The notes below the pieces were generated by a model, which was not told the DNA's origin, did no database searches, and was given only the letters and a program-made list of their open reading frames with translations. Positions 12,977 through 42,669 of a stretch of 64,000 nt of DNA are shown here, in pieces. The position numbers and the translations under genes are program-made. Every line of letters starts with the position of its first letter. The stretch's first letter is position 1. This DNA comes from Candidatus Omnitrophota bacterium (GTDB lineage Bacteria; Omnitrophota; Gorgyraeia; Duberdicusellales; 4484-171), in contig JBAWWL010000008.1 of assembly GCA_037146775.1 (NCBI GenBank), positions 70,160 to 134,159 on the forward strand, in the 5' to 3' direction.

Positions 12977-13050
12977 CGCGGGGTGGAGCAGACAGGTAGC
13001 TCGCAAGGCTCATAACCTTGAGGTCAGTGGTTCAAATCCACTCCCCGCAA
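12977..13050 (+). tRNA. tRNA-Met (CAU), initiator type (fMet)
   Basis: Cloverleaf CGCGGGG...CTCATAACC...GGTTCAAATCC...CCCCGCAA. The C1/A72 mismatch and 5'-terminal CGCGGGG are hallmarks of bacterial initiator tRNA. CCA is not encoded. Confidence 0.9.
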
Positions 13051-13205
13051 TGTCTTAAATAGAGGGCGTAGATTGAAGAAATTCAACCTACGCCTTTTCT
13101 GTTTATGGACATATAGTATCGTTGGAGGCTGTGTGATATGGTTTATGCTGAGGTTTAAATTGTAAATTTTAGCCTGTAGGATATAATAAAAAAAAGGAGT
13201 AATAA

Positions 13206-13235
13206 ATGAAACCTCAAACAAAGAAAATCATAGCG
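13206..13235 (+). repeat. 5' module copy 1 (ATGAAACCTCAAACAAAGAAAATCATAGCG), encodes 16-aa mini-ORF MKPQTKKIIADEWFGE
   Basis: 30-nt motif present 9x between 13.2 and 22.4 kb. Confidence 0.9.
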
Positions 13236-13262
13236 GATGAGTGGTTTGGTGAATAAGGAGGG

Positions 13263-13706
13263 GTGATGGAAAATATTACAGCACCAAAAGGTGTAATATT
13301 AATAGTAAAAACTTATACTGTGTTAATTGTCTTATTGTTTGGGATATCGCTGCTTTTATTATTTGCAAGCACACTTCCAGTTCCCGTATCAGAAAGTGAT
13401 AGCCTTGAAGCTGGTGTCCGGGTTTCAAAGATGCAATCGTTGTCTTTGCGAGCTTCCGGTATTATTCTATTTTTAGCTATTAATTTTATCCTGTTGCGAA
13501 AAGCACTGCGAAATTTAAAAAAGTTGGCACTATATTACAATTTGTTACTTTTCATAGCATGTAGTATTCCTTTATTATTATTCATTATTGATGTTAAAGA
13601 CGCCCAAGTTATTGGTATTAAGATATTTTTTATTTTAATAATTCTATTATTTCTGTGCAGTAATTTGTATCTTTTCCGTTCCAAGGTTAAAAAGTGTTTT
13701 ATATAG
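13263..13706 (+). CDS. hypothetical polytopic membrane protein
   Basis: 147 aa, 4 predicted TM helices; RBS GGAGGGG upstream; lies between the two tRNA-derived repeats. Confidence 0.5.
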   Translation: MMENITAPKGVILIVKTYTVLIVLLFGISLLLLFASTLPVPVSESDSLEAGVRVSKMQSLSLRASGIILFLAINFILLRKALRNLKKLALYYNLLLFIACSIPLLLFIIDVKDAQVIGIKIFFILIILLFLCSNLYLFRSKVKKCFI

Positions 13707-13743
13707 AAATATTGTAAGCCGATTCTACTATCCATTTTTTTTC

Positions 13744-13805
13744 ATCATCTGGGCGGTAAGGACGTTGAAGCAAAATGATTTAGGTAAAGATATTTAAAAG
13801 GAAGT
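13744..13805 (+). repeat. 3' module copy a (..CATCTGGGCGGTAAGGACGTTGAAGCAAAATGATTTAGGTAAAGATATTTAAAAGGAAG)
   Basis: ~60-nt motif present 7x. It reads as the C-terminal peptide IIWAVRTLKQ.DLGKDI* when in frame. Confidence 0.9.
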
Positions 13806-13949
13806 ATAGAAATGAGGACCGGGTCTACTATTATAAATTGAGCATTTCTATTTACATTACTACTTGAAGTAATACAATCATCTAAAGGAGGTAAAGGCTA
13901 CTGAGGACAGGGTACTAGTCAACAAAGCTCTTTATTAGTTTTTTATCGT

Positions 13950-14140
13950 CTCATAACCTTGAGGTCAGTGGTTCCCCGCCAGCGAAGCTGGCGAGGTCTC
14001 GCCCTCTGCCGAAGGCAGAGAGGCGGAAAATCCACTCCCCGCAATGTCTTAAATAGAGGGCGTAGATTGAAGAAATTCAATCTACGCCTTCTTTGTTTAT
14101 AGGCATGTAATGCTTTCGGAGGCTGTGGGGAGACTCGATA
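13950..14140 (+). repeat. direct repeat of the tRNA-fMet 3' half (anticodon loop onward) plus ~90 nt of its downstream flank, interrupted by a 57-nt insertion
   Basis: 13009-13140 and 13950-14140 share CTCATAACCTTGAGGTCAGTGGTT...TCCACTCCCCGCAATGTCTTAAATAGAGGGCGTAGATTGAAGAAATTCAA. The second copy has a two-hairpin insert CCCCGCCAGCGAAGCTGGCG...GCCGAAGGCAGAG at the T-loop position. Confidence 0.85.
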
Positions 14141-14334
14141 ATGTTTATCCTACCAACGAACCTATATTAATTTGGACCTTATCATGTGTTAGCAGCATTA
14201 CTTTCTGCTAGCATTGTAAGCGATTCCAGCAATTACCGTGCATAGCCTTGTCGGCTAATCTCTTAAAATGTTATACTTAAATACTAGAGCATCATAAAAA
14301 TAAGGAAATATCTGTAGATGATAGGAAGAAAGCT

Positions 14335-15162
14335 ATGAGATCGTTCAAATTCTTATTGTTTTATCTTGTTTTTAATCTGCTATTTGTAGGATTTAGATGT
14401 TTTGCTTCCGATAGCAAGGTGCTATCTACAAAAGTTGTCAGTAATAGAGCCCAGAAGCGTGAACAAGTAAAGGGGCAATTTATGGCCGAGCGTTCTATAG
14501 ATAGAAGGCAAGAACTAGATGCCCGCGCAAAATGGAACAACGCAATTATTCCTGCCGCTGGTACAACATACGAAGTTCGTGCTTTAGTAAAAGGGAAAGA
14601 CCGAGACCAAGTATTTGAACAGACAATTTCCTCGGGGCACACTTCTTTGCAACGCGCAGAAGAGAAACGTGCCGAAGCCCTTGATAGACCTTATTATAAA
14701 GGTTCTCATGTTGCAATTTTTATGGAAGTTAATAATGAATTAAAGCAAGTGCTATATTGGGACCCCGCCATTAAACCTTTATATAGAATTGGTAGTTATG
14801 ATACGCTCTATGAGGTGGCTGATTTGGCCGCACGCTTACGTTTGGATGATTATAAAATGATAGCAGCTAAAGGATGGGATAGAGATCCGAATGTAGCTGG
14901 AATGTTAGCGCCAGAACTAAAAATATACAGTGTTGATGGCGATGGCATGCCCATGAGTGAAGCTGATATCGCCTTCGAAGTATTTCTTAAAACAGAAGGT
15001 ATTCATAGGCCAAAAGCGTTAAATATTTTTCATTATACAAACCAAGAAGCAGAAGATTTTGTTTCAAGAGAACAAAAATTTCTTCCACAAGGACAGAGTT
15101 TACGTATTAGAGAATCAATCTTTTTTAACCCTCTCCCGGAAAATTTCAGTTATCCTGATTGA
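14335..15162 (+). CDS. hypothetical secreted protein
   Basis: 275 aa, N-terminal signal peptide, no recognisable motif. Confidence 0.5.
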   Translation: MRSFKFLLFYLVFNLLFVGFRCFASDSKVLSTKVVSNRAQKREQVKGQFMAERSIDRRQELDARAKWNNAIIPAAGTTYEVRALVKGKDRDQVFEQTISSGHTSLQRAEEKRAEALDRPYYKGSHVAIFMEVNNELKQVLYWDPAIKPLYRIGSYDTLYEVADLAARLRLDDYKMIAAKGWDRDPNVAGMLAPELKIYSVDGDGMPMSEADIAFEVFLKTEGIHRPKALNIFHYTNQEAEDFVSREQKFLPQGQSLRIRESIFFNPLPENFSYPD

Positions 15163-15325
15163 AAGTTATATCTTGTCATTATGAACACAATATGACATTT
15201 GAGTGGGAATTAGTAGTTAACCTGCCTTAGTTTTTATCCCACCAGCCAATCTACATTAGTTTTAACCCCTCGCTAAATCTGTTGTAGTCATAAATTACCG
15301 TGGTATATTGAAAACAAACAGTAAA

Positions 15326-15526
15326 ATGACAGCAGCAAATATAATAGGTGGGATTTTATTTAGCGGAATTGGCTTCGTTGCCTTGATGTATGGGAAAAAG
15401 CAAGTCAATACAAAGGCGATGATAATCGGCGTTCTACTTATGGCCTACCCTTATTTTGTGTCAAACACCATTGCGTTATATCTAATAGGCGTTGTTTTAA
15501 CAGTAGCCTTATTCATCCCCCGCTAA
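15326..15526 (+). CDS. small two-TM membrane protein
   Basis: ~66 aa, two hydrophobic helices. Confidence 0.35.
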   Translation: MTAANIIGGILFSGIGFVALMYGKKQVNTKAMIIGVLLMAYPYFVSNTIALYLIGVVLTVALFIPR

Positions 15527-15712
15527 ATACCTCGCTTTTTTAACCTTGACCAATATTTACTATAGCAGTATCATTTTAGCTACTTGACCACAAAGGGGTG
15601 GTTAATGCATGAGGATAAAATGATATCCAGAAAACACAATCGGGACATTTTTATAGGGTAAGGCAATCATCTATCAGAGGATTGCCTTTTTGGTTTAAGA
15701 AAGGAGATATAT

Positions 15713-16462
15713 ATGAAATGCAGCGTTCATCTTGAAAGAGAAGCTGTAGGAGCTTGCGTAGAATGTGGTCTTGCTTTTTGTGAGGAGTGCAAAGTTACTA
15801 TAAGTAATAAAAATTATTGCAAAAAATGTGTTGAAAGGGTAATCAAAAGAACCAAACTTTCTGAAAGAAATCCTGCCATTGCTGCTTTATTGAGTTTTAT
15901 TATCGCTGGTGCAGGACAAATATATAATGGACAGATAGGAAAAGGTATTTTAATATTTCTAACGGCTTGGCTAGTAATACCTTGGATTTATGGCATTTTC
16001 GATGCCTACAACACAGCCAAAAGAATAAATAATGGAGAAATAGTTACTGAGGAACCATCGGGTTGTTTGCTTGCGCTTTTGTTTGTTATAACGATTCCGG
16101 TGGTTGTTGCTATGATTGCTTTACTTGCTGCTATAGCTATCCCAAATTTCTTGAGAGCTAGATTGGCAGCTAACGAAGCCGGAGCAGAAGCAAAAGTAAT
16201 GACTATATCTACAGCACTTGAGAGCTATGCCTCTGTGCATGAAGGGAATTATCCTTCAGATGAAAAGGACCTTACAAATGCCCAGCCACCCTACTTAGGT
16301 GAATCTTGCAGTAATAAATCAATTAAAGGATATAATTATTCTTTAGAATTAAATTCTGATGGATATACAGTTACTGCAGAACCTTCCAGTTGCGGAACTA
16401 CAGGAAGTAGAATTTTTAAAGTAGAGACGGGTGGGATTAAACGTGAACAACAATGTAAATGA
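15713..16462 (+). CDS. zinc-ribbon / TM2-domain / type IV pilin-like helix fusion protein
   Basis: N-terminal CxxC...CxxC...CxxC ribbon. TM2-like segment (AGAGQIYNGQIGKGILIFLTAWLVIPWIYGIFDA). Then ALLAAIAIPNFLRARLAANEAGAEAK, which resembles the conserved pilin/pseudopilin N-terminal helix. Confidence 0.5.
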   Translation: MKCSVHLEREAVGACVECGLAFCEECKVTISNKNYCKKCVERVIKRTKLSERNPAIAALLSFIIAGAGQIYNGQIGKGILIFLTAWLVIPWIYGIFDAYNTAKRINNGEIVTEEPSGCLLALLFVITIPVVVAMIALLAAIAIPNFLRARLAANEAGAEAKVMTISTALESYASVHEGNYPSDEKDLTNAQPPYLGESCSNKSIKGYNYSLELNSDGYTVTAEPSSCGTTGSRIFKVETGGIKREQQCK

Positions 16463-16731
16463 ATAAAAAACAATTAATAGTTACTTTATTAACACTATTT
16501 TTTGTTTTACCTGTATTCGCCGCCAATATACCTCAAGAGTTACAATTGCTTGGTTTTACTCAAGACAAGTTAGTTGATTACAGACGTGCTAAAGATAATA
16601 TTGAATATTTTACTTTCTCCGATTGGACTACGGAGAGGAAGGGAGATACAATTACCTTCATAGTCGAGAGAGGTCAGATAACAGGAAAGTTTAAAGATGA
16701 GAATAGAAAGGTTTTAGATAAGGATATTTAA
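16459..16731 (+). CDS. small secreted protein (paralog of 22090..22383)
   Basis: 90 aa, signal peptide; the mature part is ~90% identical to the 22090 ORF (IPQELQLLGFTQ.KLVDYRRAK.NIEYFTF.DWTTERKGDTITFIVERGQITGKFKD). Confidence 0.6.
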   Translation: MNKKQLIVTLLTLFFVLPVFAANIPQELQLLGFTQDKLVDYRRAKDNIEYFTFSDWTTERKGDTITFIVERGQITGKFKDENRKVLDKDI

Positions 16732-16744
16732 AAGGAGGAGATAA

Positions 16745-17305
16745 ATGAATAGTAAAATAATTACGTTGATGATAGTGCTATCAGTTTTATATTATAACAA
16801 TGCTGCAGCTAAAACTATAAACGCTTTAGACGTATTATCTTTTGAGGTAAATGATGCTACTCAGGTTACTGTAGGACCATATAAACAAGGCGACTTCCAG
16901 ATATATACAGCAGCCTTGGTCGATCCTGAAGATAGGCTTTTGGGGGAATTTCATATCCAGGATTTTTCCAAACAATATACAAATTGGAAAGAAGTCTTAG
17001 TGTCGCCAACATATGATTTGGATGGATACAAAAGTGCGATTACTACACTTTTTCCTAATACTTTAATTTCTACCTTAACTTGGGTTTCGGCTGAAAAAAA
17101 TAACATAAATGATAAGCAAGTTTATACGTATATTTTTGATTATACTAACTCTAAACTTTCGATAACTCATAGATTCAAATGCTACATATTAATACAAAAT
17201 AGTTATCTCATTAGATGTTATGCTGGAACACCGCAGGCAGAATTTGAAAAAAATTCTAAAATAATAGATAGCATTATAGAAAGTGTAAGATTTGTTCAGA
17301 ATTAG
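16745..17305 (+). CDS. hypothetical secreted protein
   Basis: 186 aa, signal peptide; RBS AAGGAGG 8 nt upstream. Confidence 0.5.
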   Translation: MNSKIITLMIVLSVLYYNNAAAKTINALDVLSFEVNDATQVTVGPYKQGDFQIYTAALVDPEDRLLGEFHIQDFSKQYTNWKEVLVSPTYDLDGYKSAITTLFPNTLISTLTWVSAEKNNINDKQVYTYIFDYTNSKLSITHRFKCYILIQNSYLIRCYAGTPQAEFEKNSKIIDSIIESVRFVQN

Positions 17306-17349
17306 CAAAATTCTTTAGAACAAAAGAACAGTTTAAATAAGGAGACTTA

Positions 17350-17583
17350 ATGAAACCTCAAACAAGGAAAATCATAGCGAGAGAAGTAAGGATTCTGTTG
17401 CTTTGTTATGTCTTAGGTCTTATAGCTGGTTATCTCGTGACGTGCAATAAGAATGCCCCTTGGTACTCTTCCTTTGTGGGAGCGTTCAGTGTTTGTATAA
17501 TTTATTACATCGCTATTTTAATTGTGCGTTTGTTATTCAAATGTATCATCTGGGCGGTAAGGACGTTGAAACAAAGGATTTAG
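17350..17583 (+). CDS. small membrane protein, intact member of the module-bounded family (MKPQTKKIIAR...IIWAVRTLKQRI)
   Basis: 77 aa, 2 TM. N-terminus is the 5' module and C-terminus is the 3' module, in one frame. Confidence 0.6.
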   Translation: MKPQTRKIIAREVRILLLCYVLGLIAGYLVTCNKNAPWYSSFVGAFSVCIIYYIAILIVRLLFKCIIWAVRTLKQRI

Positions 17584-17609
17584 GTAAAGATATTTAAAGA
17601 GGCGATATG
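17545..17609 (+). repeat. 3' module copy b
   Basis: CATCTGGGCGGTAAGGACGTTGAAACAAAGGATTTAGGTAAAGATATTTAAAGAGGCGATATG. It supplies the RBS and start context of the 17607 ORF. Confidence 0.9.
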
Positions 17610-17948
17610 AATGAGGTCGTTACAAAGAAGAAAAGACCAAACATGGTTTCGATGTTCGTTCTCTGTTATGGTTTATTGGGTGGCTATTATCTTTTTGAAC
17701 GTTTTTTGGGTTCAAGCGGAGTAAGAATGATAAAGCCATACGATGTAGCAGAAGTTAGTATTGTCTTAATTTTTGGTTTATTATTTTTTCTTTCTTCGAT
17801 TCTACTGTTTAGAATGAAGTACTCTGGATTTTGGGTTGTTATTATACCGCTATTTTTATTTGCTTACGGTTTACCCCCATTATCTTTATTGCTATTATTA
17901 CATATTGTTTATTTTAATCTACCCAAAGTAAAAGAACAGTTTAAATGA
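17607..17948 (+). CDS. small membrane protein (C-terminal LPKVKEQFK)
   Basis: 113 aa, 3 TM. Shares its C-terminal motif with the 17989 ORF. Confidence 0.5.
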   Translation: MNEVVTKKKRPNMVSMFVLCYGLLGGYYLFERFLGSSGVRMIKPYDVAEVSIVLIFGLLFFLSSILLFRMKYSGFWVVIIPLFLFAYGLPPLSLLLLLHIVYFNLPKVKEQFK

Positions 17949-17974
17949 AACTTCAAACAAAGAAAATCATAGCG
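17945..17974 (+). repeat. 5' module copy 3 (mini-ORF MKLQTKKIIARRRE)
   Basis: Its ATG overlaps the TGA of the upstream gene (TAAATGA); the internal AGGAGGG serves as RBS for the 17989 ORF. Confidence 0.9.
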
Positions 17975-17988
17975 AGAAGGAGGGAATA

Positions 17989-18417
17989 ATGGAGAAGAAA
18001 AGGTCGGTTGGGGTTACGATACTCTCACTGATTTATATCGTTATAGGCTTAGGCATATTAACAACTACCATAACCGAACCCAGAAATACAGAACCAAGCA
18101 TTTTCTATTCGCATTGGGGGAGGGAAATTTTTGAGCCAATGACACCCTTAGAGCATTTGCGTTTCCAGGCAATTTTAGCGTTTTGCTTATCCACACCTTT
18201 TCTTATTAGTGGATTTGGTACTTTGAAATTGAAAAAATGGGGAAGGATACTTATTGTAATACTAAATATGTTTTTTGTATTTTTATTACCCCCAACAATT
18301 ATAACAGTAGTTATCTATAAGCATCACGATTTTTTATTTCTCCTTATTATGGAAATTTTTGCACTCATTTTTTCGGTTTATCTCGCCCGTCCCAAAGTAA
18401 AAGAGCAGTTTAAGTAA
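17989..18417 (+). CDS. small membrane protein (C-terminal RPKVKEQFK)
   Basis: 142 aa, 4 TM. Confidence 0.5.
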   Translation: MEKKRSVGVTILSLIYIVIGLGILTTTITEPRNTEPSIFYSHWGREIFEPMTPLEHLRFQAILAFCLSTPFLISGFGTLKLKKWGRILIVILNMFFVFLLPPTIITVVIYKHHDFLFLLIMEIFALIFSVYLARPKVKEQFK

Positions 18418-18424
18418 TCCGCTT

Positions 18425-18490
18425 TATCCTCTGGGCGGTAAGGACGTTGAAGCAAAAGGATTTAAGGAAAGATATTTAAGGAGATATATG
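18425..18490 (+). repeat. 3' module copy c
   Basis: CCTCTGGGCGGTAAGGACGTTGAAGCAAAAGGATTTAAGGAAAGATATTTAAGGAGATATATG; ends in the ATG of the 18488 ORF. Confidence 0.9.
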
Positions 18491-18760
18491 AATAAACAAA
18501 AGACGAAATTTTTCTGGATAGTTATGGTGTTGGTTCTTGTCGGCATTGCTGTATTATTTTTGTTAATTTATGCTCAATGCTATGTACTTAAGCCTCAACA
18601 CGGAATGGGTCGGATGAGTCCAGGTAAAGATGCAGCATATTACGATTCAGATAAGAAAAAATGGGTAAGCGAGGCGGAATGGCTTAGGAAGTACACAGAA
18701 TTGCCAATAGGTTATCTTTCGAAAGAGGAGTGGGATAAGAAAAAACGGAATAATCAATGA
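18488..18760 (+). CDS. small single-TM protein
   Basis: 90 aa, N-terminal TM, charged C-terminal domain. Confidence 0.45.
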   Translation: MNKQKTKFFWIVMVLVLVGIAVLFLLIYAQCYVLKPQHGMGRMSPGKDAAYYDSDKKKWVSEAEWLRKYTELPIGYLSKEEWDKKKRNNQ

Positions 18761-19374
18761 AACCTCGAACAAAGAAAATCATAGCGATAGCAATAATAGG
18801 AATTATCATTTTTGGGGTTATATTTTTTGGAGGACATTTATTTAAGGGGAATGTATCTGGCAATGCAAGAATAAATAGGTCTTTCAAAGATTTAACTCTT
18901 GGAATGAGCCTCGAAGAATTTAAGTCAAAATTAATATATGAAGAAGGAAGCATGACAAAAGGTACATCATACAGAAGCTATGCGATATATAATACTTTTT
19001 ATAACTCTTTGTATCATTACTCCGGTCAAGGCAAACGAATGAAGGAAATTAAAAATGTTTATAGCGTCTGGTGTTATTTCCTTGAAAACAAACTATTTAA
19101 GATCCACATAAGTTACCTTAATAGCTATCATCCGACTTGGGATAATGTTATCCATAACGCAAAAGGAAAGTATGGTGAGGGTATAATAGAAGCAGGAAAT
19201 GTTATTCGTTGGGATGATGGAAAAACTACTCTAACGATAGCCAAATTATACGGGGAGCAAGGCTTAAATATAAGTGATAGTTATAGTGGAGACCATTACA
19301 CAGTAACTTATAAAGATAACGAGCTGAGCTCATTAATTGACAAGAAAGAAAAGAAGGAAACCCCTGAAATCTAA
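18757..19374 (+). CDS. hypothetical N-terminally anchored protein (N-terminus derived from the 5' module)
   Basis: 205 aa; starts MKPRTKKIIAIAIIGIIIF, which is 5' module copy 4. Confidence 0.5.
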   Translation: MKPRTKKIIAIAIIGIIIFGVIFFGGHLFKGNVSGNARINRSFKDLTLGMSLEEFKSKLIYEEGSMTKGTSYRSYAIYNTFYNSLYHYSGQGKRMKEIKNVYSVWCYFLENKLFKIHISYLNSYHPTWDNVIHNAKGKYGEGIIEAGNVIRWDDGKTTLTIAKLYGEQGLNISDSYSGDHYTVTYKDNELSSLIDKKEKKETPEI

Positions 19375-19394
19375 ACGAGTAAAGGTAGAGAAAG

Positions 19395-19673
19395 ATGTTT
19401 AAAAGGGAATATATGAAACTAAAGAAAATCATAGCGAGAGAAGGGTTGGCATTGTTGGTGGCGATTTTTATTGCTTGGCATATGGCACAAACTAACGGTC
19501 TGAAAAGTTTTATGATGGATATTAGAATTGTAACCCCACGCCCAAATCAAGCAGATGCTGTTTTGCAAGAAGCAACTACAGCTGGTTTTTGGTTTATTTT
19601 GATTGTGGGTTATGGCGTTGTCCGCTTCATCCCCCTAAAGGGACGGCGTTGGACGCCAGCATCTGGGCGGTAA
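19395..19673 (+). CDS. small membrane protein, module family member with frame-shifted 3' end (possible pseudogene)
   Basis: Contains the 5' module deletion variant (MKLKKIIAREG). The 3' module follows out of frame (ends PASGR* instead of IWAVRTLKQ). Confidence 0.35.
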   Translation: MFKREYMKLKKIIAREGLALLVAIFIAWHMAQTNGLKSFMMDIRIVTPRPNQADAVLQEATTAGFWFILIVGYGVVRFIPLKGRRWTPASGR

Positions 19674-19724
19674 GGACGTTAAAGCAGAAGGATCCAAGGA
19701 AAGATATTTAAAGGAGGCGATATG
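19659..19724 (+). repeat. 3' module copy d
   Basis: CATCTGGGCGGTAAGGACGTTAAAGCAGAAGGATCCAAGGAAAGATATTTAAAGGAGGCGATATG; feeds the 19722 ORF. Confidence 0.9.
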
Positions 19725-20039
19725 AAACTATCCAGTAAAGTAATCTGGTTTATTTTTGGTGTAATACTTTATCCGCTTTGTTTTATGCTTATTTTTATAC
19801 TTACGATTCCCCTTTCAGCTCTACCAAAAAATAATGCGGTGCAAATTTTTTCTATATCGGTAATATTTTTAATACCTATTTTTATTATCGTACTGACTTG
19901 GAAACGTAATATTAGTTTTGCTGTAGGATTAATTTTATCCTTTTGCTTAGTTTTCATTTCGTTGAATAGAAGTTACAGAAGGGTGGTGAAGAATGAGAAA
20001 GCAAAAGTACTAGAAAATTCATTACCCGCCCCAAAGTAA
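19722..20039 (+). CDS. small membrane protein
   Basis: 105 aa, 3 TM. The 3' end runs into the PKVKEQFK-type motif out of frame. Confidence 0.45.
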   Translation: MKLSSKVIWFIFGVILYPLCFMLIFILTIPLSALPKNNAVQIFSISVIFLIPIFIIVLTWKRNISFAVGLILSFCLVFISLNRSYRRVVKNEKAKVLENSLPAPK

Positions 20040-20052
20040 AGGAGCAGTTTAA

Positions 20053-20082
20053 ATGAAACTTCAAACAAAGAAAATCATAGCG
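20053..20082 (+). repeat. 5' module copy 6 (mini-ORF MKLQTKKIIARGDENVFI)
   Basis: Preceded by GGAGCAGTTTAA; overlaps the start of the 20090 ORF. Confidence 0.9.
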
Positions 20083-20089
20083 AGAGGGG

Positions 20090-20488
20090 ATGAGAATGTA
20101 TTTATTTAAAAGGATAATGTGGTTTCTCGGAGGGATTATTACGGGGTTCATATCATCTTTTTATATTCTTGTACCTATATTTTGTTCACTCCAAATACCC
20201 GTCTATTTACAATGTAGTATTATCATTATCATTGTGACAATTGTGCTTTTGCTATTTTCTAAGAAAAATAGAATATTCTTTTATAGTTTCCTTATTTCAT
20301 TTATTATTGGGACGATTCCATGTATTGTGTTTTATTATGTGTTTGGAGGTGGCAGTTTTCCTAACCCCGATGGCGGTTCTGGCAGGATGAGTCGGGAAGA
20401 ACAGTTAGAATTAGAAAGAAATCAACAAGAATACAAACCAGACCCAAGCAGAATTAAAATAATACAACTGAAATCAAAAAATGATTAA
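20090..20488 (+). CDS. small membrane protein
   Basis: 132 aa, 3-4 TM, Gly-rich C-terminal tail. Confidence 0.45.
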   Translation: MRMYLFKRIMWFLGGIITGFISSFYILVPIFCSLQIPVYLQCSIIIIIVTIVLLLFSKKNRIFFYSFLISFIIGTIPCIVFYYVFGGGSFPNPDGGSGRMSREEQLELERNQQEYKPDPSRIKIIQLKSKND

Positions 20489-20519
20489 GGAAATGGTAAT
20501 GTTTTTTTTCTTTAATGGT

Positions 20520-20549
20520 ATGAAATCCCAAACAAAGAAAATCATAGCG
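20520..20549 (+). repeat. 5' module copy 7 (mini-ORF MKSQTKKIIAREAKLAYIGKKEETYELVFPSA)
   Basis: The leader ORF overlaps the RBS and start of the DUF805 gene. Confidence 0.85.
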
Positions 20550-20592
20550 AGAGAGGCAAAGCTAGCATATATCGGAAAAAAGGAGGAGACCT

Positions 20593-20937
20593 ATGAATTG
20601 GTATTTCCAAGTGCTTAAGAAGTACGCAGTATTTAGCGGTCGTGCTAGACGGAAAGAGTACTGGATGTTCTTAATTTTTAACTTGAGTGTCTGCTTTGTA
20701 TTAGGTTTCATAGAAGGGTTTTCCGGTATTACGCCAAAGGGAAACCACAGTGTTTTGGGCAGGATTTATGTATTGGCTGTCTTGATTCCGATCATTGCCG
20801 TTGCTATCCGCAGAATGCACGACACTGACCATCGCGGATGGTGGATACTCGTTCCGATTGTCAGCTGGGTTTTCCTCTGTTTAGATAGTACCCCCGGAAA
20901 CAATAGATTCGGACCTAACCCCAAGGCTATCTCTTAA
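20593..20937 (+). CDS. DUF805-family inner membrane protein
   Basis: MNWYFQVLKKYAVFSGRARRKEYW motif and 3 TM typical of DUF805 (YhaH-like). Confidence 0.65.
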   Translation: MNWYFQVLKKYAVFSGRARRKEYWMFLIFNLSVCFVLGFIEGFSGITPKGNHSVLGRIYVLAVLIPIIAVAIRRMHDTDHRGWWILVPIVSWVFLCLDSTPGNNRFGPNPKAIS

Positions 20938-20945
20938 CTTGTTTT

Positions 20946-21012
20946 CATCATTTGGGCGGTAAGGACGATAAGATAAAAGGATTTAGGTAAAGATATTTAG
21001 GGGGGATATACG
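20946..21012 (+). repeat. 3' module copy e, followed by a degenerate 5' module
   Basis: CATCATTTGGGCGGTAAGGACGATAAGATAAAAGGATTTAGGTAAAGATATTTAGGGGGGATATACGAAACCTCCAATACAG. Confidence 0.85.
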
Positions 21013-21073
21013 AAACCTCCAATACAGATTCCGTATATTAATTGTTAGATTTAATAAATAAGATAAAAAAATA

Positions 21074-21436
21074 ATGGCGAAATGTTTTAACTGTGGCAAA
21101 GAAATTGGTTTATCTTGGATTTGGAAAAAGCGGATGGTCCACGCGCCTCTTACTCTCCGACGATATACTCATAAGATAGTAGGCTTACCATTTTTTTATT
21201 GCCCCGATTGCGGAACAGAAATTCAACCTTCCGCAATCACAATGTGTGTTTATAGCGTTATAGTAATGGGTGGAACGTTGGGAACCTCGTGGCTGATTGT
21301 TCTGTTTGGCGATAAAAAACAGGTTAACATTATTAGCATAACAGTGATTTTTATATTTTTTGCTGTACTTGGTAACTTATGGTGGAAATTTTTCGGCAAA
21401 TTAAAAGAACCATATCAATTTCCTTGGGAAAAGTAG
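21074..21436 (+). CDS. zinc-ribbon membrane protein
   Basis: CFNCGKEI...YCPDCGTEI ribbon then 2 TM. Confidence 0.5.
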   Translation: MAKCFNCGKEIGLSWIWKKRMVHAPLTLRRYTHKIVGLPFFYCPDCGTEIQPSAITMCVYSVIVMGGTLGTSWLIVLFGDKKQVNIISITVIFIFFAVLGNLWWKFFGKLKEPYQFPWEK

Positions 21437-21494
21437 TAATTAAATAAAAATCTAACAAGGCAATCCAGCGGACTAAAATAAGGGAGCAGTTTAA

Positions 21495-21524
21495 ATGAAA
21501 CTTCAAACAAAGAAAATCATAGCG
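21495..21524 (+). repeat. 5' module copy 8 (mini-ORF MKLQTKKIIARRRG)
   Basis: Preceded by GGGAGCAGTTTAA; AGGAGGGG RBS for the 21536 ORF. Confidence 0.9.
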
Positions 21525-21535
21525 AGAAGGAGGGG

Positions 21536-21805
21536 ATGATGGAGAAGAAATGCTCGGTTGGGATAAGAATATTTAGCATAATAGGATTACTTTATGTGTC
21601 CTTTTTTCATTTAATACCTTTATTTTACTATGCTCGGATGAATAATTTTATTCATTTAATTTTCTTAGCTTTCTCCATAATTCTAATAATTAGCTTAATA
21701 TTTATGTTAAAAATGAAAAACTGGGCAAGAATAGTATTTGTTTCCCTTATGATTATCCAATGTTTATCTGTGTTTCCAACTATAATCGAGGATTTTAGAA
21801 AATAA
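21536..21805 (+). CDS. small membrane protein
   Basis: 89 aa, 3 TM; its 3' end is tagged by the GGGGTCAGACC... repeat. Confidence 0.45.
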   Translation: MMEKKCSVGIRIFSIIGLLYVSFFHLIPLFYYARMNNFIHLIFLAFSIILIISLIFMLKMKNWARIVFVSLMIIQCLSVFPTIIEDFRK

Positions 21806-21811
21806 GATAGA

Positions 21812-21836
21812 GGGGTCAGACCTTCAGATGTCAGAT
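21812..21836 (+). repeat. GGGGTCAGACCTTCAGATGTCAGAT repeat copy 1
   Basis: Identical 25-26-mer at 21812, 23456 and 26039, each at a gene 3' end. Confidence 0.9.
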
Positions 21837-22089
21837 AGATCGCAAAAATGAATTATTTATCAACCAAAGCCCACCTCCGGGGTGGGATTTGGTTGAGGTT
21901 TATAGATTAAACAAAATTAAAAATTATCCATGCCCGACGATCCACTTGATGAATTTCTAGGATATGATTTTGCAGTGGGCGCGGATAACATAAAATGTTC
22001 CCATTGTGGTTACAACATATCGCGTAGCTTATTCTTCGAAGACGATGACGAAGAAATCAAATGTCCTAAGTGCGGCGGAAAAATAGAAA

Positions 22090-22383
22090 ATGATGGATAA
22101 AAGACACGTAATATCTTTTTTGCTGGTATTAATTTATTTTGTTTCCCTGTCTTATAGTAAAGAGCTGCCAAAAAAGAATATTCCCCAAGAGCTGCAATTG
22201 CTCGGTTTTACTCAAGAAAAGTTGGTTGATTACAGACGTGCTAAAGGAAATATCGAATACTTCACTTTCTTTGATTGGACTACAGAGAGGAAGGGAGATA
22301 CCATTACTTTCATAGTCGAGAGAGGTCAGATAACAGGAAAGTTTAAGGATAAAGATAGGAAAGATTCAGGTAGGGATATTTAA
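22090..22383 (+). CDS. small secreted protein (paralog of 16459..16731)
   Basis: 97 aa. Different signal peptide from its paralog but a near-identical mature region. Confidence 0.6.
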   Translation: MMDKRHVISFLLVLIYFVSLSYSKELPKKNIPQELQLLGFTQEKLVDYRRAKGNIEYFTFFDWTTERKGDTITFIVERGQITGKFKDKDRKDSGRDI

Positions 22384-22394
22384 AAGGAGGATAT

Positions 22395-22625
22395 ATGAAA
22401 CTCGAAACAAAGAAAATCATAGCAAGCGAATGGTTGATTTTGTTATGTTTAATAATTACTTTTTATTCATCTTTGGCATTGTACAGGGAAATAACCTTAC
22501 GGTATGACCAAATTTTAACTCCTATTTATTTCTGGAGGCATTTTGGTTTAATGTACACAGCTTATTTTATCATTCGCTTTACAATCTGGGCGGTGAGGAC
22601 GCTAAGGCAGAAGGATGTAAAATGA
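22395..22625 (+). CDS. small membrane protein, second intact member of the module-bounded family (MKLETKKIIA...FTIWAVRTLRQKDVK)
   Basis: 76 aa. 5' module copy 9 forms the N-terminus and 3' module copy f the C-terminus. Confidence 0.6.
   Translation: MKLETKKIIASEWLILLCLIITFYSSLALYREITLRYDQILTPIYFWRHFGLMYTAYFIIRFTIWAVRTLRQKDVK
22583..22624 (+). repeat. 3' module copy f (coding, in frame)
   Basis: CAATCTGGGCGGTGAGGACGCTAAGGCAGAAGGATG. Confidence 0.85.
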
Positions 22626-22918
22626 GATTGGGCAATAAAATTGGATTGTTGATTATAATTATAATTCCAGTATGGATATTTATAAGAGCCCAGTTAATTT
22701 ATACAGAAGGTCCAAAAATAGTTAAGAGGATAGAAGAATATAAGGTTAGATATAAAACATACCCAGAAACATTAGGGCAGATGAATATAAGGAGTATACT
22801 TTCTCCGATATATATGTATTCTAAAAACGATGACAAATTTAGCTTAATGTATTCTATATTTATATTTTCAAGATGGTATTATGATTCCAATGATAAAAAA
22901 TGGAAGACCATGGATTAA
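22622..22918 (+). CDS. small N-terminally anchored protein
   Basis: 98 aa, one TM. Confidence 0.4.
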   Translation: MRLGNKIGLLIIIIIPVWIFIRAQLIYTEGPKIVKRIEEYKVRYKTYPETLGQMNIRSILSPIYMYSKNDDKFSLMYSIFIFSRWYYDSNDKKWKTMD

Positions 22919-22984
22919 ATGTTAACTAAAAAATTATTGGATATTTATAAAACTGCGAAAGAATATTTTACTCGTCCGTTTCAT

Positions 22985-23015
22985 CGCCTGGGCGGTGAGG
23001 GCGAAAGATAAAATG
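22985..23015 (+). repeat. 3' module copy g (truncated)
   Basis: CGCCTGGGCGGTGAGGGCGAAAGATAAAATG; runs into the start of the 22995 ORF. Confidence 0.75.
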
Positions 23016-23432
23016 AAAAAACTAATCGGTTTATTGATATTAGTTGTATTGATTGATGGGTATACTGCAAGAATTGATGCTGCGAGCAATGGAAGTGAAG
23101 CATCTAATTATGAGTACAGCGATAATGATATTCCGGCTGTTTGTTTTTTCCCGGTAGAAAAGGCAAGATGGAGTGGCTACGGCGTTACCAACAATGATTG
23201 GGGAAAGCTGACTGATTATCAAAAAACTATGTTTATCTCAGAAGGGATAGAAGAAATTAAACGAATCGAAACGGGTAAAGTTACGGTAAATATTCAGGAA
23301 GAAGGGGCAGCTTTGCTTATTGCCACGAACGAAAGGGTTTTCCGTCTTCAGGAAGAATACCCCGGCCTTGATGTAGGAATGATAAAGTTTCTACGCGATA
23401 TGTTGCAAGATATGGGAAAAATAAAAGAATAA
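22995..23432 (+). CDS. hypothetical secreted protein
   Basis: 145 aa with signal peptide; 3' end tagged by the GTCAGA repeat. Confidence 0.45.
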   Translation: MRAKDKMKKLIGLLILVVLIDGYTARIDAASNGSEASNYEYSDNDIPAVCFFPVEKARWSGYGVTNNDWGKLTDYQKTMFISEGIEEIKRIETGKVTVNIQEEGAALLIATNERVFRLQEEYPGLDVGMIKFLRDMLQDMGKIKE

Positions 23433-23455
23433 ATAAGTCATATAGTGGGGTCAGA

Positions 23456-23480
23456 CCTTCAGATGTCAGATGAATAAAAA
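23456..23480 (+). repeat. GGGGTCAGACCTTCAGATGTCAGAT repeat copy 2
   Basis: Exact copy. Confidence 0.9.
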
Positions 23481-24445: not shown

Positions 24446-26065
24446 ATGGTTAGAAAAGAACATAAAATCTTATTATTGTCTTTATTTTTTACTACAGGCA
24501 TTTTGTTATATTCCTTCGGTGTCCAGATAGGGAATCTTTGCGGCAATGGTGTCTGTCAGGTAGGTGAGAATTCCGGAAATTGTCAGGCAGATTGCAGGCC
24601 CAGAAAAATAACACAGGATCCTTTCGGCATTTTTGTGCCTTATCTTACAAAAAACTCGATAAGTATGATCAACGAACTTGCTGTTGACGCAAGAACCATC
24701 GTTATGTGGGATTGGATTACACCGAGGAAAATTACGGCTTTTGATGATTTTATTTCTCAAGTTAAAACGAATGTGGTGCTTACCTTAGGTGGGGCTAAGA
24801 AATTTTCTTCCGGCGGGGGTTTTCCGCTTCCGCGAGGAAAAGATCTCGAAGAATGGAAAACGATGGTTGCAAGATTAGTCGAAAGATACGATGGGGATAA
24901 CGATTGGGGATGTGCTTTAAATCAGCCGGACTGCTATAATCCCGGAGACGGACTTTACCCAAATAATGATTTTCAAGAAGCAATCAAGAAAAGGCCAATT
25001 AAATATTGGCAGATAGAAAATGAATGGCTTTGGGAGATCAAAGATCCCGACAACCCGCAACGTCGGGCTTCCAATGAGAGCATGTTGGACTATTTTCTAC
25101 AAATCAGAAAAGTTATCAAGGATAGAGACTCCCGGGCTAAGATAGTTTTGGGTGCTTCTACTACTTCCCATTTTTCCGCAGGTGCGGATGGCTATAGTCC
25201 CGACAATTGCATTGAGTGGGGGGATTTAGATTGTAAATATGAAAAACTTTCTTTGGATGCGCTGCGGCCAAAAGCACGCTTGAAATTAAAGGAGATGCGG
25301 GAAAGGGATATTTTCTTTATGAAAAAAGCTGCGCCGTATTATGATGTTTTTGATTTCCATATCTATGGAAATAATCTTTTGGATATTGCTTATGTGGTTG
25401 GCTGGTTTAACAAAATAATGCATGAAAATAATATTGCAGGTAAGGCAATCTGGAGTACAGAAATAGCTAAGCCATATTTTTTCTTTCCTTTAATGGGCCT
25501 GCCTAGACCGGATTGTGCCACGGATGACAAATTATTTTATCCCAACGGGCCGCGGCCGATTAAAACAGCATATGATAGTAGTATACATTCGAGTTACCTG
25601 GTTAAGCTTTTTGTCATTGGGATAGACAGCGGTGTAGAGAAAATGTTTTATGCCGGCTTGCACCCGATTTTTAACCTCAATGATAATTTTTGTAAACTAT
25701 CCCTCACTAATGAAAGAGATGAGAAAAAACCGGCATATTACACTTATAAATTAATGCGGGAAAAGCTAGCTGGATGCACAGACGTAGAAAAATTAGCCGA
25801 CCATACCTATAAGTTTTCTTTTGGGAATAAGAAACCAGTCTTTGTTGTATGGGGCGACTCCGGAAATAAAACTATCGACTTATCGCGTTATATTGGCGCA
25901 AAAAAAATAAAAGTTACACGTATTATTACCGAGAACGGTAAGACTGACCAAGATGCGTTGGTAGAGACTTTACCTGTGAGCCAGATAGAAATTTCGGTGA
26001 CGCCTGTTTTTATCGAAGAGGCAGATAAGGAAAATGACGGGGTCAGACCTTCAGATGTCAGATAA
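24446..26065 (+). CDS. secreted glycoside-hydrolase-like (TIM-barrel) protein
   Basis: 539 aa, signal anchor, Cys-rich linker. WQIENEW resembles the GH5/GH39-type catalytic NE(P/W) strand. C-terminus VRPSDVR is encoded by GTCAGA repeat copy 3. Confidence 0.4.
   Translation: MVRKEHKILLLSLFFTTGILLYSFGVQIGNLCGNGVCQVGENSGNCQADCRPRKITQDPFGIFVPYLTKNSISMINELAVDARTIVMWDWITPRKITAFDDFISQVKTNVVLTLGGAKKFSSGGGFPLPRGKDLEEWKTMVARLVERYDGDNDWGCALNQPDCYNPGDGLYPNNDFQEAIKKRPIKYWQIENEWLWEIKDPDNPQRRASNESMLDYFLQIRKVIKDRDSRAKIVLGASTTSHFSAGADGYSPDNCIEWGDLDCKYEKLSLDALRPKARLKLKEMRERDIFFMKKAAPYYDVFDFHIYGNNLLDIAYVVGWFNKIMHENNIAGKAIWSTEIAKPYFFFPLMGLPRPDCATDDKLFYPNGPRPIKTAYDSSIHSSYLVKLFVIGIDSGVEKMFYAGLHPIFNLNDNFCKLSLTNERDEKKPAYYTYKLMREKLAGCTDVEKLADHTYKFSFGNKKPVFVVWGDSGNKTIDLSRYIGAKKIKVTRIITENGKTDQDALVETLPVSQIEISVTPVFIEEADKENDGVRPSDVR
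26039..26063 (+). repeat. GGGGTCAGACCTTCAGATGTCAGAT repeat copy 3
   Basis: Exact copy, forming the last codons of the 24446 ORF. Confidence 0.9.
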
Positions 26066-41309: not shown

Positions 41310-42305
41310 TTAAAACTTCAACGTCTCAACCGCTTTCTTTAAATGCTCCGGACTTAGGTGAGCGTATATCTGCGTAGTAGCAAAGTCAGCATGGCCCAAT
41401 ATTTTACCTACTGTATATAAATCCACCCCACTCATGACTAACCATGAGGCGCAGGAATGACGAAGTACATGGAAGAGCCTGCCTTTACCCAAGTTTATCT
41501 TCGCGGCCACCAATAAAGTCTTAAATGCCCTCTTGGGCTCGTCTGTGTATTTTTTACCGTTATAAACGAACACAAACGGCGTAGAATGGGGTATCTTGTG
41601 TAGGGTAGAGGAAACCATCGGATGTATGGGAATTGTGCGAAAAATACGGCTTTTTGCCTTACTACCACGTATTGTAATAGTATTGTTCGATAAATCTATG
41701 TCTTTCCATTCAAGATTAAGGATTTCACCTATTCTCATGCCGGTATAGAGTGCAGTTATGATTATAGGATATAAATGCGATTCTTTGGAAACTTCAAGCA
41801 GCTTGGATATTTCGTCTTTGGATAAATAGCGCGGAGGTTCTTTCGGTACTTTGAGTTTTTTAATCTGGTCTATCGGATTATCAAAGATGTAGTTATTTCG
41901 TTTAGCGTAATTTAAGAAAGTGCGGATATTGCCGATATAGTTATTTATGCTTTTAGGTTTTAGTTTTTTCAGCGATTGAAGATATAGTTGTATCGTATGT
42001 GGCTTAACATCCCTTAACGTGTTTGCTCCGCTAAACTTAATAAATTTCTCTAACTGTGGTATATCTGTCTTGAGTGATTTTTCTGCTTTCTTGAGTTTCG
42101 AGTATTCCTTATATTCTTCAACAATTTCTGAAAGTTTTTTGCTTGTAGGTAATTTGGCGCGGCCTTCCTCAAGCTCTATTTCTTTTTGCCGTTTTAGATG
42201 AAGCGCTAGCCTGCGGTCCTTTACCTTGAGGGAATACTGGATCCTTTTTCCGTTAAGATAGAACGAAAGCCAGTAGGTGTTGTTTCTTAGGAAGATTGAG
42301 GCCAT
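41310..42305 (-). CDS. tyrosine-type site-specific integrase (phage integrase family)
   Basis: C-terminal R...HVLRHS...TTQIYAHL catalytic motif set. Confidence 0.9.
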   Translation of the reverse strand: MASIFLRNNTYWLSFYLNGKRIQYSLKVKDRRLALHLKRQKEIELEEGRAKLPTSKKLSEIVEEYKEYSKLKKAEKSLKTDIPQLEKFIKFSGANTLRDVKPHTIQLYLQSLKKLKPKSINNYIGNIRTFLNYAKRNNYIFDNPIDQIKKLKVPKEPPRYLSKDEISKLLEVSKESHLYPIIITALYTGMRIGEILNLEWKDIDLSNNTITIRGSKAKSRIFRTIPIHPMVSSTLHKIPHSTPFVFVYNGKKYTDEPKRAFKTLLVAAKINLGKGRLFHVLRHSCASWLVMSGVDLYTVGKILGHADFATTQIYAHLSPEHLKKAVETLKF

Positions 42306-42306
42306 C

Positions 42307-42669
42307 TTAAGGCACTATGCCATATTTCATTGGTTTGTCGGAATTGATAGATGAATATTCTTCAACAATCCCATCTTTAGAAAACATTATGACCAGCATT
42401 TGATTTTTCATTTCCATTTCGCTGTGGATAATATTGACTACCGGTATAAAGTTCCAGGCGGTATTTCTTACCTTACTGGCAAAGTAAGAATAAACTAATC
42501 TTCCGTCTTTATCGAAGTAGGTTGTGTCGGGTTGGCCGAAAACCTTTACCACTTCTTCTTTGGTAGTTTTGCCTTTTTGAAGCTTATCAACATTAGTTTG
42601 TTTAATTTCTGTTCCAACAGTGGCGCAGCCGGAGAAAAGAACCAAGATACAAAATATAATTATTCTCAT
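42307..42669 (-). CDS. BamE/SmpA-OmlA-like lipoprotein
   Basis: Lipobox LFSGC; LQKGKTTKEEVVKVFGQPD motif. Confidence 0.55.
   Translation of the reverse strand: MRIIIFCILVLFSGCATVGTEIKQTNVDKLQKGKTTKEEVVKVFGQPDTTYFDKDGRLVYSYFASKVRNTAWNFIPVVNIIHSEMEMKNQMLVIMFSKDGIVEEYSSINSDKPMKYGIVP

Follow-up and report, generated by a model that had tools for sequence, protein, structure and literature searches.

Contig JBAWWL010000008.1 of a Candidatus Omnitrophota bacterium (assembly GCA_037146775.1) was analysed over 64,000 nucleotides (nt; positions 70,160 to 134,159 of the forward strand), hereafter the window. At 13.2–23.0 kb of the window lies an array of 22 open reading frames (ORFs), all on the + strand, where the original prediction had counted about 25 genes. 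The array is punctuated by two short conserved sequences, the 5′ module and the 3′ module, which alignments identify as the N- and C-termini of one family of small predicted hairpin proteins with two transmembrane (TM) helices, named F1 here. F1 material is present as two intact genes, a frameshifted copy and an N-terminal fusion, together with five 5′ stubs and four 3′ stubs (Table 1). The array begins 155 nt past a tRNA-Met gene, and its GC (guanine plus cytosine) fraction is 0.34–0.35 at 16–22 kb versus 0.40–0.44 in the flanks. By the repeat of the tRNA 3′ part and the deviant GC, the region bears hallmarks of a tRNA-linked island, a setting that the original prediction had missed together with the mobile-element context described below. 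The integrase expected of such islands is lacking: Pfam scans found no recombinase among the array proteins and no integrase at 13–26.3 kb.

Searches for the modules covered both strands of the window, with shuffled sequences as the control for chance. The 30-mer originally given for the 5′ module returned eight matches at three mismatches or fewer, and its 15-nt core AARGAAAATCATAGC returned nine, all on the + strand (13220, 17364, 17959, 18771, 19421, 20067, 20534, 21509 and 22409), against 0–0.05 in shuffles. Thus, the nine predicted copies were recovered; the ninth, at 19413, lacks two codons (MKLKKIIAR), and a tenth, degenerate copy that has lost its start codon was read in the sequence at 21008–21030, directly behind a 3′ stub. 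Seven 3′ modules of about 60 nt had also been proposed. Their number stood, with seven matches to the core TGGGCGGTRAGGRCG (13750, 17551, 18432, 19664, 20953, 22587 and 22989; 0.01 expected), but the literal 55-mer given for the module has no match at three mismatches or fewer, and five of the seven copies are alignable over 56–74 nt, at 82–91% identity. Every copy of either module lies on the + strand within 13.2–23.0 kb. None was found in the remainder of the 64 kb, and tblastn with the consensus termini gave no further significant copy in the window. The modules occupy about 7% of the array. Repeats at high identity do not exceed 60 nt, and the longest repeat is 97 nt at 88%. Over 33 nt there is no difference among the stubs at 17945, 20053 and 21495, and the intact F1 copies are one to three positions off the consensus.

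The 5′ module is rich in A, and no structure is predicted for it; in neither module was a conserved RNA fold or covariation seen, the two have no common core, and the inner breakpoints vary from unit to unit, so that no fixed core is seen. No palindromes occur at the junctions, and the sole strong hairpins are the terminators at 13065–13094, 14055–14092 and 21860–21896. Promoter-like sites are not enriched in the array (51 seen versus 47 expected) and no promoter consensus overlaps the modules; one such site lies at 13160–13187, ahead of 5′ stub 1. The Rfam scan matched the tRNA alone. Three matches to the 5′ core in viral contigs lie inside unrelated ORFs and were set aside as chance, and the 3′ module has no match there. 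Repetitive extragenic palindromic (REP) elements and miniature inverted-repeat transposable elements (MITEs) were rejected as a description, since the modules are non-palindromic, derived from coding sequence and confined to one strand of 10 kb out of 64 kb; a scatter of REP-like elements, which was named in advance as evidence against the predicted cassette array, is not what the window holds. An array of clustered regularly interspaced short palindromic repeats (CRISPR) was rejected too, since the module spacings are 467–4144 nt and contain ORFs, in place of spacers of 25–50 nt. The earlier statements that the locus is no CRISPR and has neither attC-like palindromes nor insertion sequence features all hold.

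Table 1. Features of the island in window coordinates. F1 and F2 are the protein families described in the text; aa, amino acids; SD, Shine-Dalgarno sequence; DR, direct repeat.
Feature	Position	Strand	Support
tRNA-Met (CAT), left border of island	12977..13050	+	ARAGORN; Rfam RF00005, 61 bits
5′ stub 1, mini-ORF MKPQTKKIIADEWFGE and stop, ending 10 nt ahead of next ATG	13206..13256	+	
Divergent F2-like polytopic membrane gene, 146-147 aa, between 5′ stub 1 and 3′ stub 1	13263..13706	+	
3′ stub 1, remnant of ..YP..FFIIWAVRTLKQNDLGKDI and stop, no gene after	13712..13797	+	
DR of tRNA-Met 3′ part plus 85 nt downstream, with 53-nt hairpin-rich insert at 13975-14027	13950..14127	+	
Five genes without F1 modules	14335..17305	+	
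Non-coding F2 3′-end remnant (..KEQFK), just 5′ of intact F1	17316..17338	+	
Intact F1 gene, 77 aa, both modules in frame	17350..17583	+	
F2 gene, 113 aa, ending PKVKEQFK; stop overlaps ATG of next 5′ stub (ATGA)	17607..17948	+	
5′ stub 3, mini-ORF MKLQTKKIIARRRE and stop; stop overlaps next start (TAATG), end forms SD AGAAGGAGG	17945..17989	+	
Canonical F2 gene, 142 aa, MEKKRSVGVT...ARPKVKEQFK and stop, between 5′ and 3′ stub	17989..18417	+	
3′ stub 3 (IRFILWAVRTLKQKDLRKDI and stop), from preceding stop codon; gives SD and ATATG to gene 18488	18418..18479	+	
Membrane protein gene, 90 aa; stop overlaps next 5′ module (ATGA)	18488..18760	+	
205-aa gene, N-terminus = 5′ module and TM helix	18757..19374	+	
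Frameshifted F1 copy	19413..19711	+	
Membrane gene, 105 aa, with frameshifted F2 tail (other frame FITRPKVKEQFK and stop); abuts next 5′ stub	19722..20052	+	
5′ stub 6, mini-ORF overlaps start of gene 20090; left edge of block shared with contig L007	20053..20109	+	
Polytopic membrane gene, 132 aa; L007 orthologue behind same stub	20090..20488	+	
5′ stub 7, 32-codon mini-ORF, 26-nt overlap with DUF805 start	20520..20618	+	
DUF805 gene, 114 aa, between 5′ and 3′ stub	20593..20937	+	PF05656, E = 5e-29
3′ stub 5 (LVFIIWAVRTIR, in-frame stop, ..KDLGKDI and stop), 1 nt past DUF805 stop; then start-less 5′ module (ATACGAAACCTCCAATACAGA)	20938..21030	+	
Zinc-ribbon membrane gene, 120 aa	21074..21436	+	
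F2-tail remnant, then 5′ stub 8 (MKLQTKKIIARRRG and stop), overlapping start of gene 21536	21463..21539	+	
Truncated F2 paralogue, 89 aa	21536..21805	+	
56-aa zinc-ribbon gene and 97-aa paralogue of 16459-16731 (ends ..KDSGRDI, stop and SD: 3′-module tail)	21930..22383	+	
Intact F1 gene, 76 aa (P0003)	22395..22625	+	
Membrane gene, 98 aa; start overlaps F1 stop (ATGA)	22622..22918	+	
3′ stub 7 (LLVRFIAWAVR), just 5′ of gene 23013-23432	22968..23003	+	

The two intact F1 genes hold both modules in frame, as had been predicted. Everywhere else, it was thought, an ORF sits between a 5′ module and the next 3′ module. This does not describe the array: one foreign gene lies exactly between a 5′ and a 3′ stub in three units only (13206–13797, 17945–18479 and 20520–21000), the segment 19413–19711 is a third F1 copy, and the gene at 18757–19374 is a fusion. 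All five 5′ stubs keep their ATG and a frame that is open up to the next start codon, giving mini-ORFs of 14–32 codons that begin at a Shine-Dalgarno (SD) sequence or at the stop of the upstream gene (ATGA) and end from 10 nt before to 26 nt after the start of the next gene. Of F1 itself, the 5′ stubs retain 10–16 codons and the 3′ stubs 11–28; the latter begin 0–11 nt past the stop of the preceding gene. The proposal that the 3′ remnant donates its ribosome-binding site (RBS) and an ATATG start context to the next gene proved right for five of the seven 3′ modules, which run into a real gene and end with its SD and ATG, and wrong for those at 13750 and 20953, which no gene follows.

Several genes call for comment beyond the table. 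The 77-aa F1 protein ends early (..RTLKQRI and stop; 17551–17583) because one A is missing from the A-run of its 3′ module, and KDLGKDI with its stop is readable in the next frame. The frameshifted F1 copy has an intact orthologue, P0007, and its frameshifted ORF recurs unchanged in the annotation of a second assembly and on a Logan contig. The frameshifted F2 tail lies at 20018–20053. The five genes at 14335–17305 encode a secreted 275-aa protein, a 72-aa membrane protein, a 249-aa zinc-ribbon/TM2/pilin-like protein, a 90-aa protein that ends ..KVLDKDI, a tail in common with the 3′ module, and a secreted 186-aa protein. In the 249-aa protein (15713–16462), an N-terminal zinc ribbon is followed by a TM2 domain and a segment like type IV pilins or pseudopilins (AIAIPNF...), all matches being below curated thresholds.

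The ORFs in between had been taken to be unrelated. This is true of the DUF805 gene and others, but those at 13263, 17607, 17989 and 21536, and probably 19722, are paralogues of a second family, F2. Its members are polytopic membrane proteins, remotely DUF2127-like, with a conserved N-terminus MEKKRSVGVT, a GILKLKNWARI motif and the C-terminus YFLTRPKVKEQFK. The 3′ end, encoding PKVKEQFK and the stop, is conserved, and as KVKEQFK and stop it abuts a 5′ module four times in the window, in two of the four as a non-coding remnant only. On L026, a serine-recombinase element of other Omnitrophota, F2 overlaps the start of F1 by ATGA, which suggests that the F2-F1 pair is an older module borne by mobile elements. 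Universal adjacency of the two was rejected: relatives of F2 (P0126–P0175) are widespread and occur in single copy beside housekeeping genes on L021–L024, also from other Omnitrophota, yet F2 is paired with F1 on L026.

Other gene ends recur as well. The tail ..KDLGKDI, stop and SD ends the local F1 genes, and also the unrelated paralogues at 16459–16731 and 22090–22383 and the orthologue of these on the related contig L007. An exact 25-nt motif, GGGGTCAGACCTTCAGATGTCAGAT, occurs three times (21812–21836, 23447–23471 and 26039–26063; none expected); the copy at 26039 forms the last codons (..GVRPSDVR and stop) of a 539-aa ORF, and the other two lie just past the stops of genes 21536–21805 and 23013–23432. 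It is in neither L007 nor L020, the other related contig. The recurring tail and the 25-nt motif together point to reuse of gene ends at junctions as a general property of the island.

F1 is a real but so far undescribed family. A single-sequence search with the 77-aa protein was abandoned, as it gave the self-match alone and a five-sequence profile was needed. The profile of five F1 copies retrieved 428 proteins, and one of 25 F1 sequences retrieved 1201 clusters at E ≤ 1e-3; both intact genes of the window score 87–88 bits in the profile search. The few members with a named source are all Candidatus Omnitrophota. F1 has no match in Pfam, NCBIfam, PHROG or the PDB, and nothing meaningful was found in PHROGs, PADLOC, NCBIfam and the PDB for F1 and the array proteins. 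The family consists, in order, of an N-terminal x(K/R)KIIAREGL, TM1, an unalignable middle of 20–300 aa, TM2 and the C-terminus GYPxYLLIRFIIWA(I/V)(R/K)TLK(E/Q)K, and in some members two to four such units are fused in tandem. In alignments, both window genes (17350–17583 and 22395–22625) have the (K/R)KIIA(R)E(G) motif with TM1, and TM2 followed by ..(R)F(I)IWA(I/V)RTL(K/R), in which W68, A69, T72 and L73 are invariant or nearly so among 25 sequences. From the positive-inside rule we infer that both ends are cytoplasmic and the variable loop faces outward. Conservation of the termini extends to synonymous codons: ATA-GCG-AGA for IIAR, CGY in IRF, and GCG and ACG in WA.RT are common to six to eight genomes, though each makes up only about 10–45% of its synonymous set. 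Taken with the unalignable middles, this suggests either that the termini have a more recent ancestry than the middles or that they are constrained at the nucleotide level. On L025, synonymous change in the termini is tolerated.

In every other genome examined, F1 lies within a short same-strand run of small genes of no known family, together with hallmarks of mobile elements. Large and small serine recombinases and a truncated comM accompany it on L010–13, L026 is an element of about 10 kb inserted in comM with a large serine recombinase, and L001 has a large serine recombinase. A small terminase subunit and a truncated comM are found on L006, and excisionase-like genes, a tyrosine integrase and tRNA-Lys on L014. 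On L016, F1 comes directly after tRNA-Gln with a partial duplicate and is followed by Fic and HepT genes; on L025 its neighbours are PIN, Bro-N and DUF1016. F1 genes are intact in all seven of these loci, and shorter, more degenerate 3′ remnants stand ahead of other genes on L001, L006 and L010 (at 7092). The comM segments concerned (Mg-chelatase-like) are 3013–3552 of L006, 14839–15210 of L010, and 1–146 and 10405–10623 of L026. Such F1-bearing elements with large serine recombinases define a family of comM-targeting integrative elements in Omnitrophota.

Two tRNA copies carry inserts. The 53-nt insert in the tRNA-Met repeat of the window is GC-rich, sits at the T-loop position and contains two GAA-triloop hairpins (z = -4.45). 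At about 9750–9885 of L016, just upstream of the real tRNA and the F1 gene, a partial 5′ copy of tRNA-Gln has a hairpin-rich insert of about 62 nt in its anticodon loop. Both may be a small mobile insert or the scar of an attachment (att) site. At about 41300–64000 of the window, a separate prophage-like region has a tyrosine integrase (41310–42305), a BamE-like gene (42307–42669) and a CI/LexA-like S24 repressor (42679–43317), all on the – strand, and then + strand genes including one for an HTH_36 protein (45127–46125). This integrase was considered as the recombinase of the array and rejected, since it stands beside the CI-like repressor at the edge of the prophage, 18 kb off.

How the array relates to other genomes was seen on L020, a 4-kb contig from another metagenome, and on L007. 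The segment 13206–13776 is 92.7% identical to L020 over 572 columns, from the ATG of 5′ stub 1 to inside 3′ stub 1, whereas the flanks are at the random level (33–35%). In L020 this unit follows another gene, again with an ATGA overlap, and precedes yet another, and there is no tRNA there. Likewise, 20053–20333 is 94% identical to L007 over 282 columns; the identity begins a few nucleotides upstream of 20053, at TAAATGAAAC (20046), and the gene upstream is unrelated (22%). The block at 22090 is similar to L007 through the KDI, stop and SD tail, and the similarity ends about 20 nt into the 5′ module. Four of the five observed homology boundaries fall within modules. At 18757–19374, the L007 orthologue has a lipoprotein signal peptide in place of the 5′ module and TM helix, a swap of the N-terminal anchor. 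Inside the window, the junction of F2 tail and 5′ stub is 95% identical over 56–59 nt at three sites, where the flanking genes are unrelated or 27–34% identical. 5′ stub 1 has four differences between window and L020 within 12 nt, in a block that otherwise differs by about 7%; in this patch the window version is like the copy at 22395 and the L020 version like the consensus, which suggests a conversion tract. At about 1060–1205 of L020, there is a remnant of the 3′ end of gene 18488–18760 and then, at weak similarity, an apparent collapsed F1 (about 1130–1205), in which a degenerate 5′ module is joined to a 3′ tail and SD ahead of an unrelated 129-aa gene. Shared blocks with unrelated flanks in L020 and L007 show that gene order among relatives is not static, contrary to the second finding that the original prediction had named as telling against it, and the block edges support its view that gene ends act as cassette boundaries through recombination between copies. 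Looking up exact proteins (the 77-aa, 205-aa, frameshifted F1 and DivIC-like ones) for strain variants retrieved only the same metagenome-assembled genome (MAG) and fragmented Logan contigs, SRR12676968.

With moderate confidence, the array can be read as a hypervariable island derived from mobile elements and scrambled by recombination at conserved gene ends, which are kept for their translation signals. The raw material would be the F2-F1 pair of Omnitrophota integrative elements, in which the stop of F2 (..RPKVKEQFK) overlaps the start of F1, and F1, as carried on these elements, would be a two-TM hairpin with the invariant ends (K/R)KIIAREG.. and ..IRFIIWA(I/V)RTLK. Further small envelope-protein genes would have joined the pair. 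Since only the F1 ends remain similar between copies, recombination, within the array or with incoming DNA, would be confined to them as its sole sites, the end of F2 and two other gene ends serving as homology to a lesser degree. Homologous recombination or gene conversion in the 5′ end of about 33 nt and the 3′ end of about 40–60 nt would then move, duplicate, delete and replace the contents, and joins at microhomology, for instance of the AREG codons, which resemble an SD (GCGAGAGAAGG), with true SD sequences, may add to this. The stubs are proposed to be retained, not eroded, because they carry start, coupling and RBS signals in a tightly packed predicted operon: the 5′ stub as an unstructured A-rich start site whose mini-ORF, running from the upstream stop to the next start, would couple translation, and the 3′ stub as supplier of an SD and ATG context to the gene that follows. 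A unit made by inserting a gene into one F1 would look the same as one left by two separate truncations of adjacent F1 copies in an array of the form (F2-F1)n. As for the repertoire, its resemblance to immunity-gene arrays invites the guess that these are envelope, exclusion or immunity proteins.

Several points weigh against this explanation. Modules of 30–60 nt are near the lower limit for RecA-dependent exchange. The informative breakpoints come from two related contigs, which are short metagenome fragments. F1 is mostly intact in other Omnitrophota loci, so that stubs may be peculiar to one lineage. Moreover, parts of the array look like decay and have no expression role: the frameshifted F1, the frameshifted F2 tail, the in-frame stop of 3′ stub 5, the tenth 5′ module without a start, and the two 3′ stubs that no gene follows. 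The first four of these speak directly for passive decay, according to which tandem F2-F1 duplicates and other genes were integrated and then suffered deletions, the stubs being pseudogene debris without a role that is noticed only because it is the sole recognisable part of F1. The varying stub lengths, the possible collapsed remnant in L020 and the lack of recombination machinery in the array agree with it. What makes decay unlikely is the state of the stubs and their surroundings. The stubs are conserved at least as well as the corresponding parts of intact F1, as the three identical ones show, and every 5′ stub keeps its ATG and open frame. Junctions that are 95% identical stand beside unrelated genes, foreign genes lie within 0–11 nt of stubs, and four of five cross-genome boundaries fall in modules that cover so little of the array.

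Could the F1 ends be attachment sites? Under a site-specific cassette system, a recombinase encoded elsewhere, such as one of the serine recombinases on F1-bearing elements, would capture genes into F1 in the manner of integrons. F1 stands beside serine or tyrosine recombinases in five of seven other contexts, nucleotide conservation of its termini extends across genomes, a single gene lies between the stubs in three units, and one unit (13206–13776) is found intact in a different neighbourhood on L020. However, varying inner breakpoints without a fixed core, and 5′ and 3′ modules without a common one, disfavour a precise site-specific reaction; the modules have neither dyad symmetry nor an attC-like fold, no recombinase lies within 18 kb of the array, and on the recombinase-bearing elements F1 is intact and away from the ends that abut comM or tRNA. 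We therefore regard such a system as improbable. Equally doubtful is a related idea, in which F1 is a dedicated docking platform, a "gene-within-gene" cassette system. The termini, nucleotide-constant across Omnitrophota mobile elements, would be homology or att arms for swapping the middle of the gene, the cargo being in-frame periplasmic loop domains or, in the window, whole foreign genes with their own RBS, and the stubs would double as translational coupling devices.

Slightly less probable still is selection at the level of translation alone, with the modules as leader mini-ORFs or enhancers recruited independently and without recombination. The A-rich and predicted unstructured 5′ module, the mini-ORFs that run from upstream stops to near downstream starts, and the SD and ATG carried by 3′ stubs are what this would need, but near-identical stretches of 33–60 nt cannot arise independently, only by copying; exchange is demonstrated by the block boundaries between genomes; and two 3′ stubs have no downstream gene. 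It is better seen as the retention half of the recombination scheme set out above than as an alternative to it. A false mosaic from chimeric joins at short repeats is very improbable. In its favour are the origin of the sequence from a MAG and the breaks of Logan (k-mer graph) contigs at repeats: both ends of L008 lie inside 5′ modules, and L019 stops just past the gene upstream of the tRNA. Against it, two public assemblies have identical gene lengths and offsets through the array (WCI77_07680-07725 versus GCA_964613555.1), L008 independently spans 17.96–20.07 kb, a stretch that takes in one 3′ stub as well as the fusion gene and the frameshifted F1, stub-gene junctions are reproduced on contigs from other samples, the repeats are shorter than typical short reads (assumed to be about 150 nt), and breaks in 5′ modules are expected for 33-nt repeats in a k-mer graph.

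Among known systems, the closest analogues in manner of working are esaG of Staphylococcus aureus and tipC of Streptococcus, tandem paralogues for immunity to type VII secretion in which recombination takes place between conserved blocks of homology (Garrett et al., 2022, PMC9484751). Like the array, they are strings of small paralogues that share a strand but are not identical; tipC has blocks of high similarity at its 5′ and 3′ ends, and homologous recombination between blocks explains gain, loss and chimeras. The array likewise has tandem paralogues with end blocks, namely two intact F1 genes, one frameshifted F1 and the stubs, of which only the ends align. The difference is that the blocks of esaG and tipC stay in intact paralogues, whereas here they are orphan stubs around other families (F2, DUF805), reused as start, coupling and RBS signals; and no domain of a toxin or of a secretion system turned up, within the array or next to it, in scans with Pfam, NCBIfam, PADLOC and PHROGs. 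Also close are the PeSL (promoter-early stem-loop) cassettes of T4-type phages, through which hyperplastic regions are shuffled in modular fashion (Arbiol et al., 2010, PMC2839356; PMC4122927). Short conserved expression-signal motifs lie between small non-essential ORFs there, and recombination leads to insertions, deletions and replacements between relatives, which are repeat-bounded in our case too (window versus L020 and L007). However, PeSLs are non-coding promoters and terminator hairpins of a lytic phage, and here the seams are coding ends of a membrane-protein gene in a chromosomal island; a sigma-70 promoter and stem-loop terminator per repeat are not found in the modules. Downstream of the type VI secretion clusters of Vibrio cholerae, orphan immunity arrays are built up as genes are displaced one after another, through homologous recombination that uses no specific sites (Kirchberger et al., 2017, PMC5361080). 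The likeness lies in mosaic growth by replacement at conserved flanks, with older genes left and no dedicated integration site; effectors are absent here, and the homology is a split small gene in place of large flanking genes.

Integrons are arrays of small co-oriented genes with the tyrosine recombinase intI and attC sites, imperfect palindromes that fold as hairpins. The rAID-1 clusters of Bacteroidales are integron-like (Ross et al., bioRxiv 10.1101/471110). The island has in common with both the many small co-oriented genes of low GC, the repeats at junctions and the links to mobile elements, but it is without an adjacent IntI or XerD-like recombinase and without attC palindromes, its repeats are gene fragments, and its breakpoints vary. 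An integron was therefore rejected, although the cassettes are small, co-oriented and mostly promoterless. In the modular theory of Susskind and Botstein, conserved boundary or "linker" sequences reportedly serve modular exchange in lambdoid phages. Such linkers are, like the modules, short conserved gene-boundary sequences at which unrelated modules cross over, but they belong to phages and are mostly intergenic, whereas here they are defined gene termini of one protein family. With no recombinase, attC, promoter-terminator hairpins or toxin system, the locus is therefore not a member of the esaG/tipC, PeSL, V. cholerae or rAID-1/integron systems. What sets it apart is the nature of its seams. 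These are the two ends of a small gene for a membrane protein, split from each other, which survive as orphan stubs and are apparently co-opted as expression signals.

Recombination at short conserved boundary sequences is known already; the stub form, and its occurrence in an uncultivated phylum, are new. For annotation there is a warning, in that stubs give rise to small ORFs that are spurious, cause k-mer assemblies to break and can conceal what an island contains in a MAG. For models of recombination-driven, integrase-free cassette exchange, the island offers a concrete test case in metagenomic populations. We know of no cultured, genetically tractable members of Omnitrophota. If the docking platform were true after all, this uncultivated phylum would have an integron analogue that is independent of a recombinase or uses a new one. 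On the explanation preferred here, conserved gene ends of 30–60 nt can act as seams for shuffling a bacterial accessory island, and leftover gene fragments apparently gain a second use, providing unrelated genes with start, coupling and RBS signals. The work also brought to light a large new protein family and a defined family of elements that integrate at comM and tRNA genes; with about 1200 clusters, the undescribed F1 family marks integrative elements of Omnitrophota.

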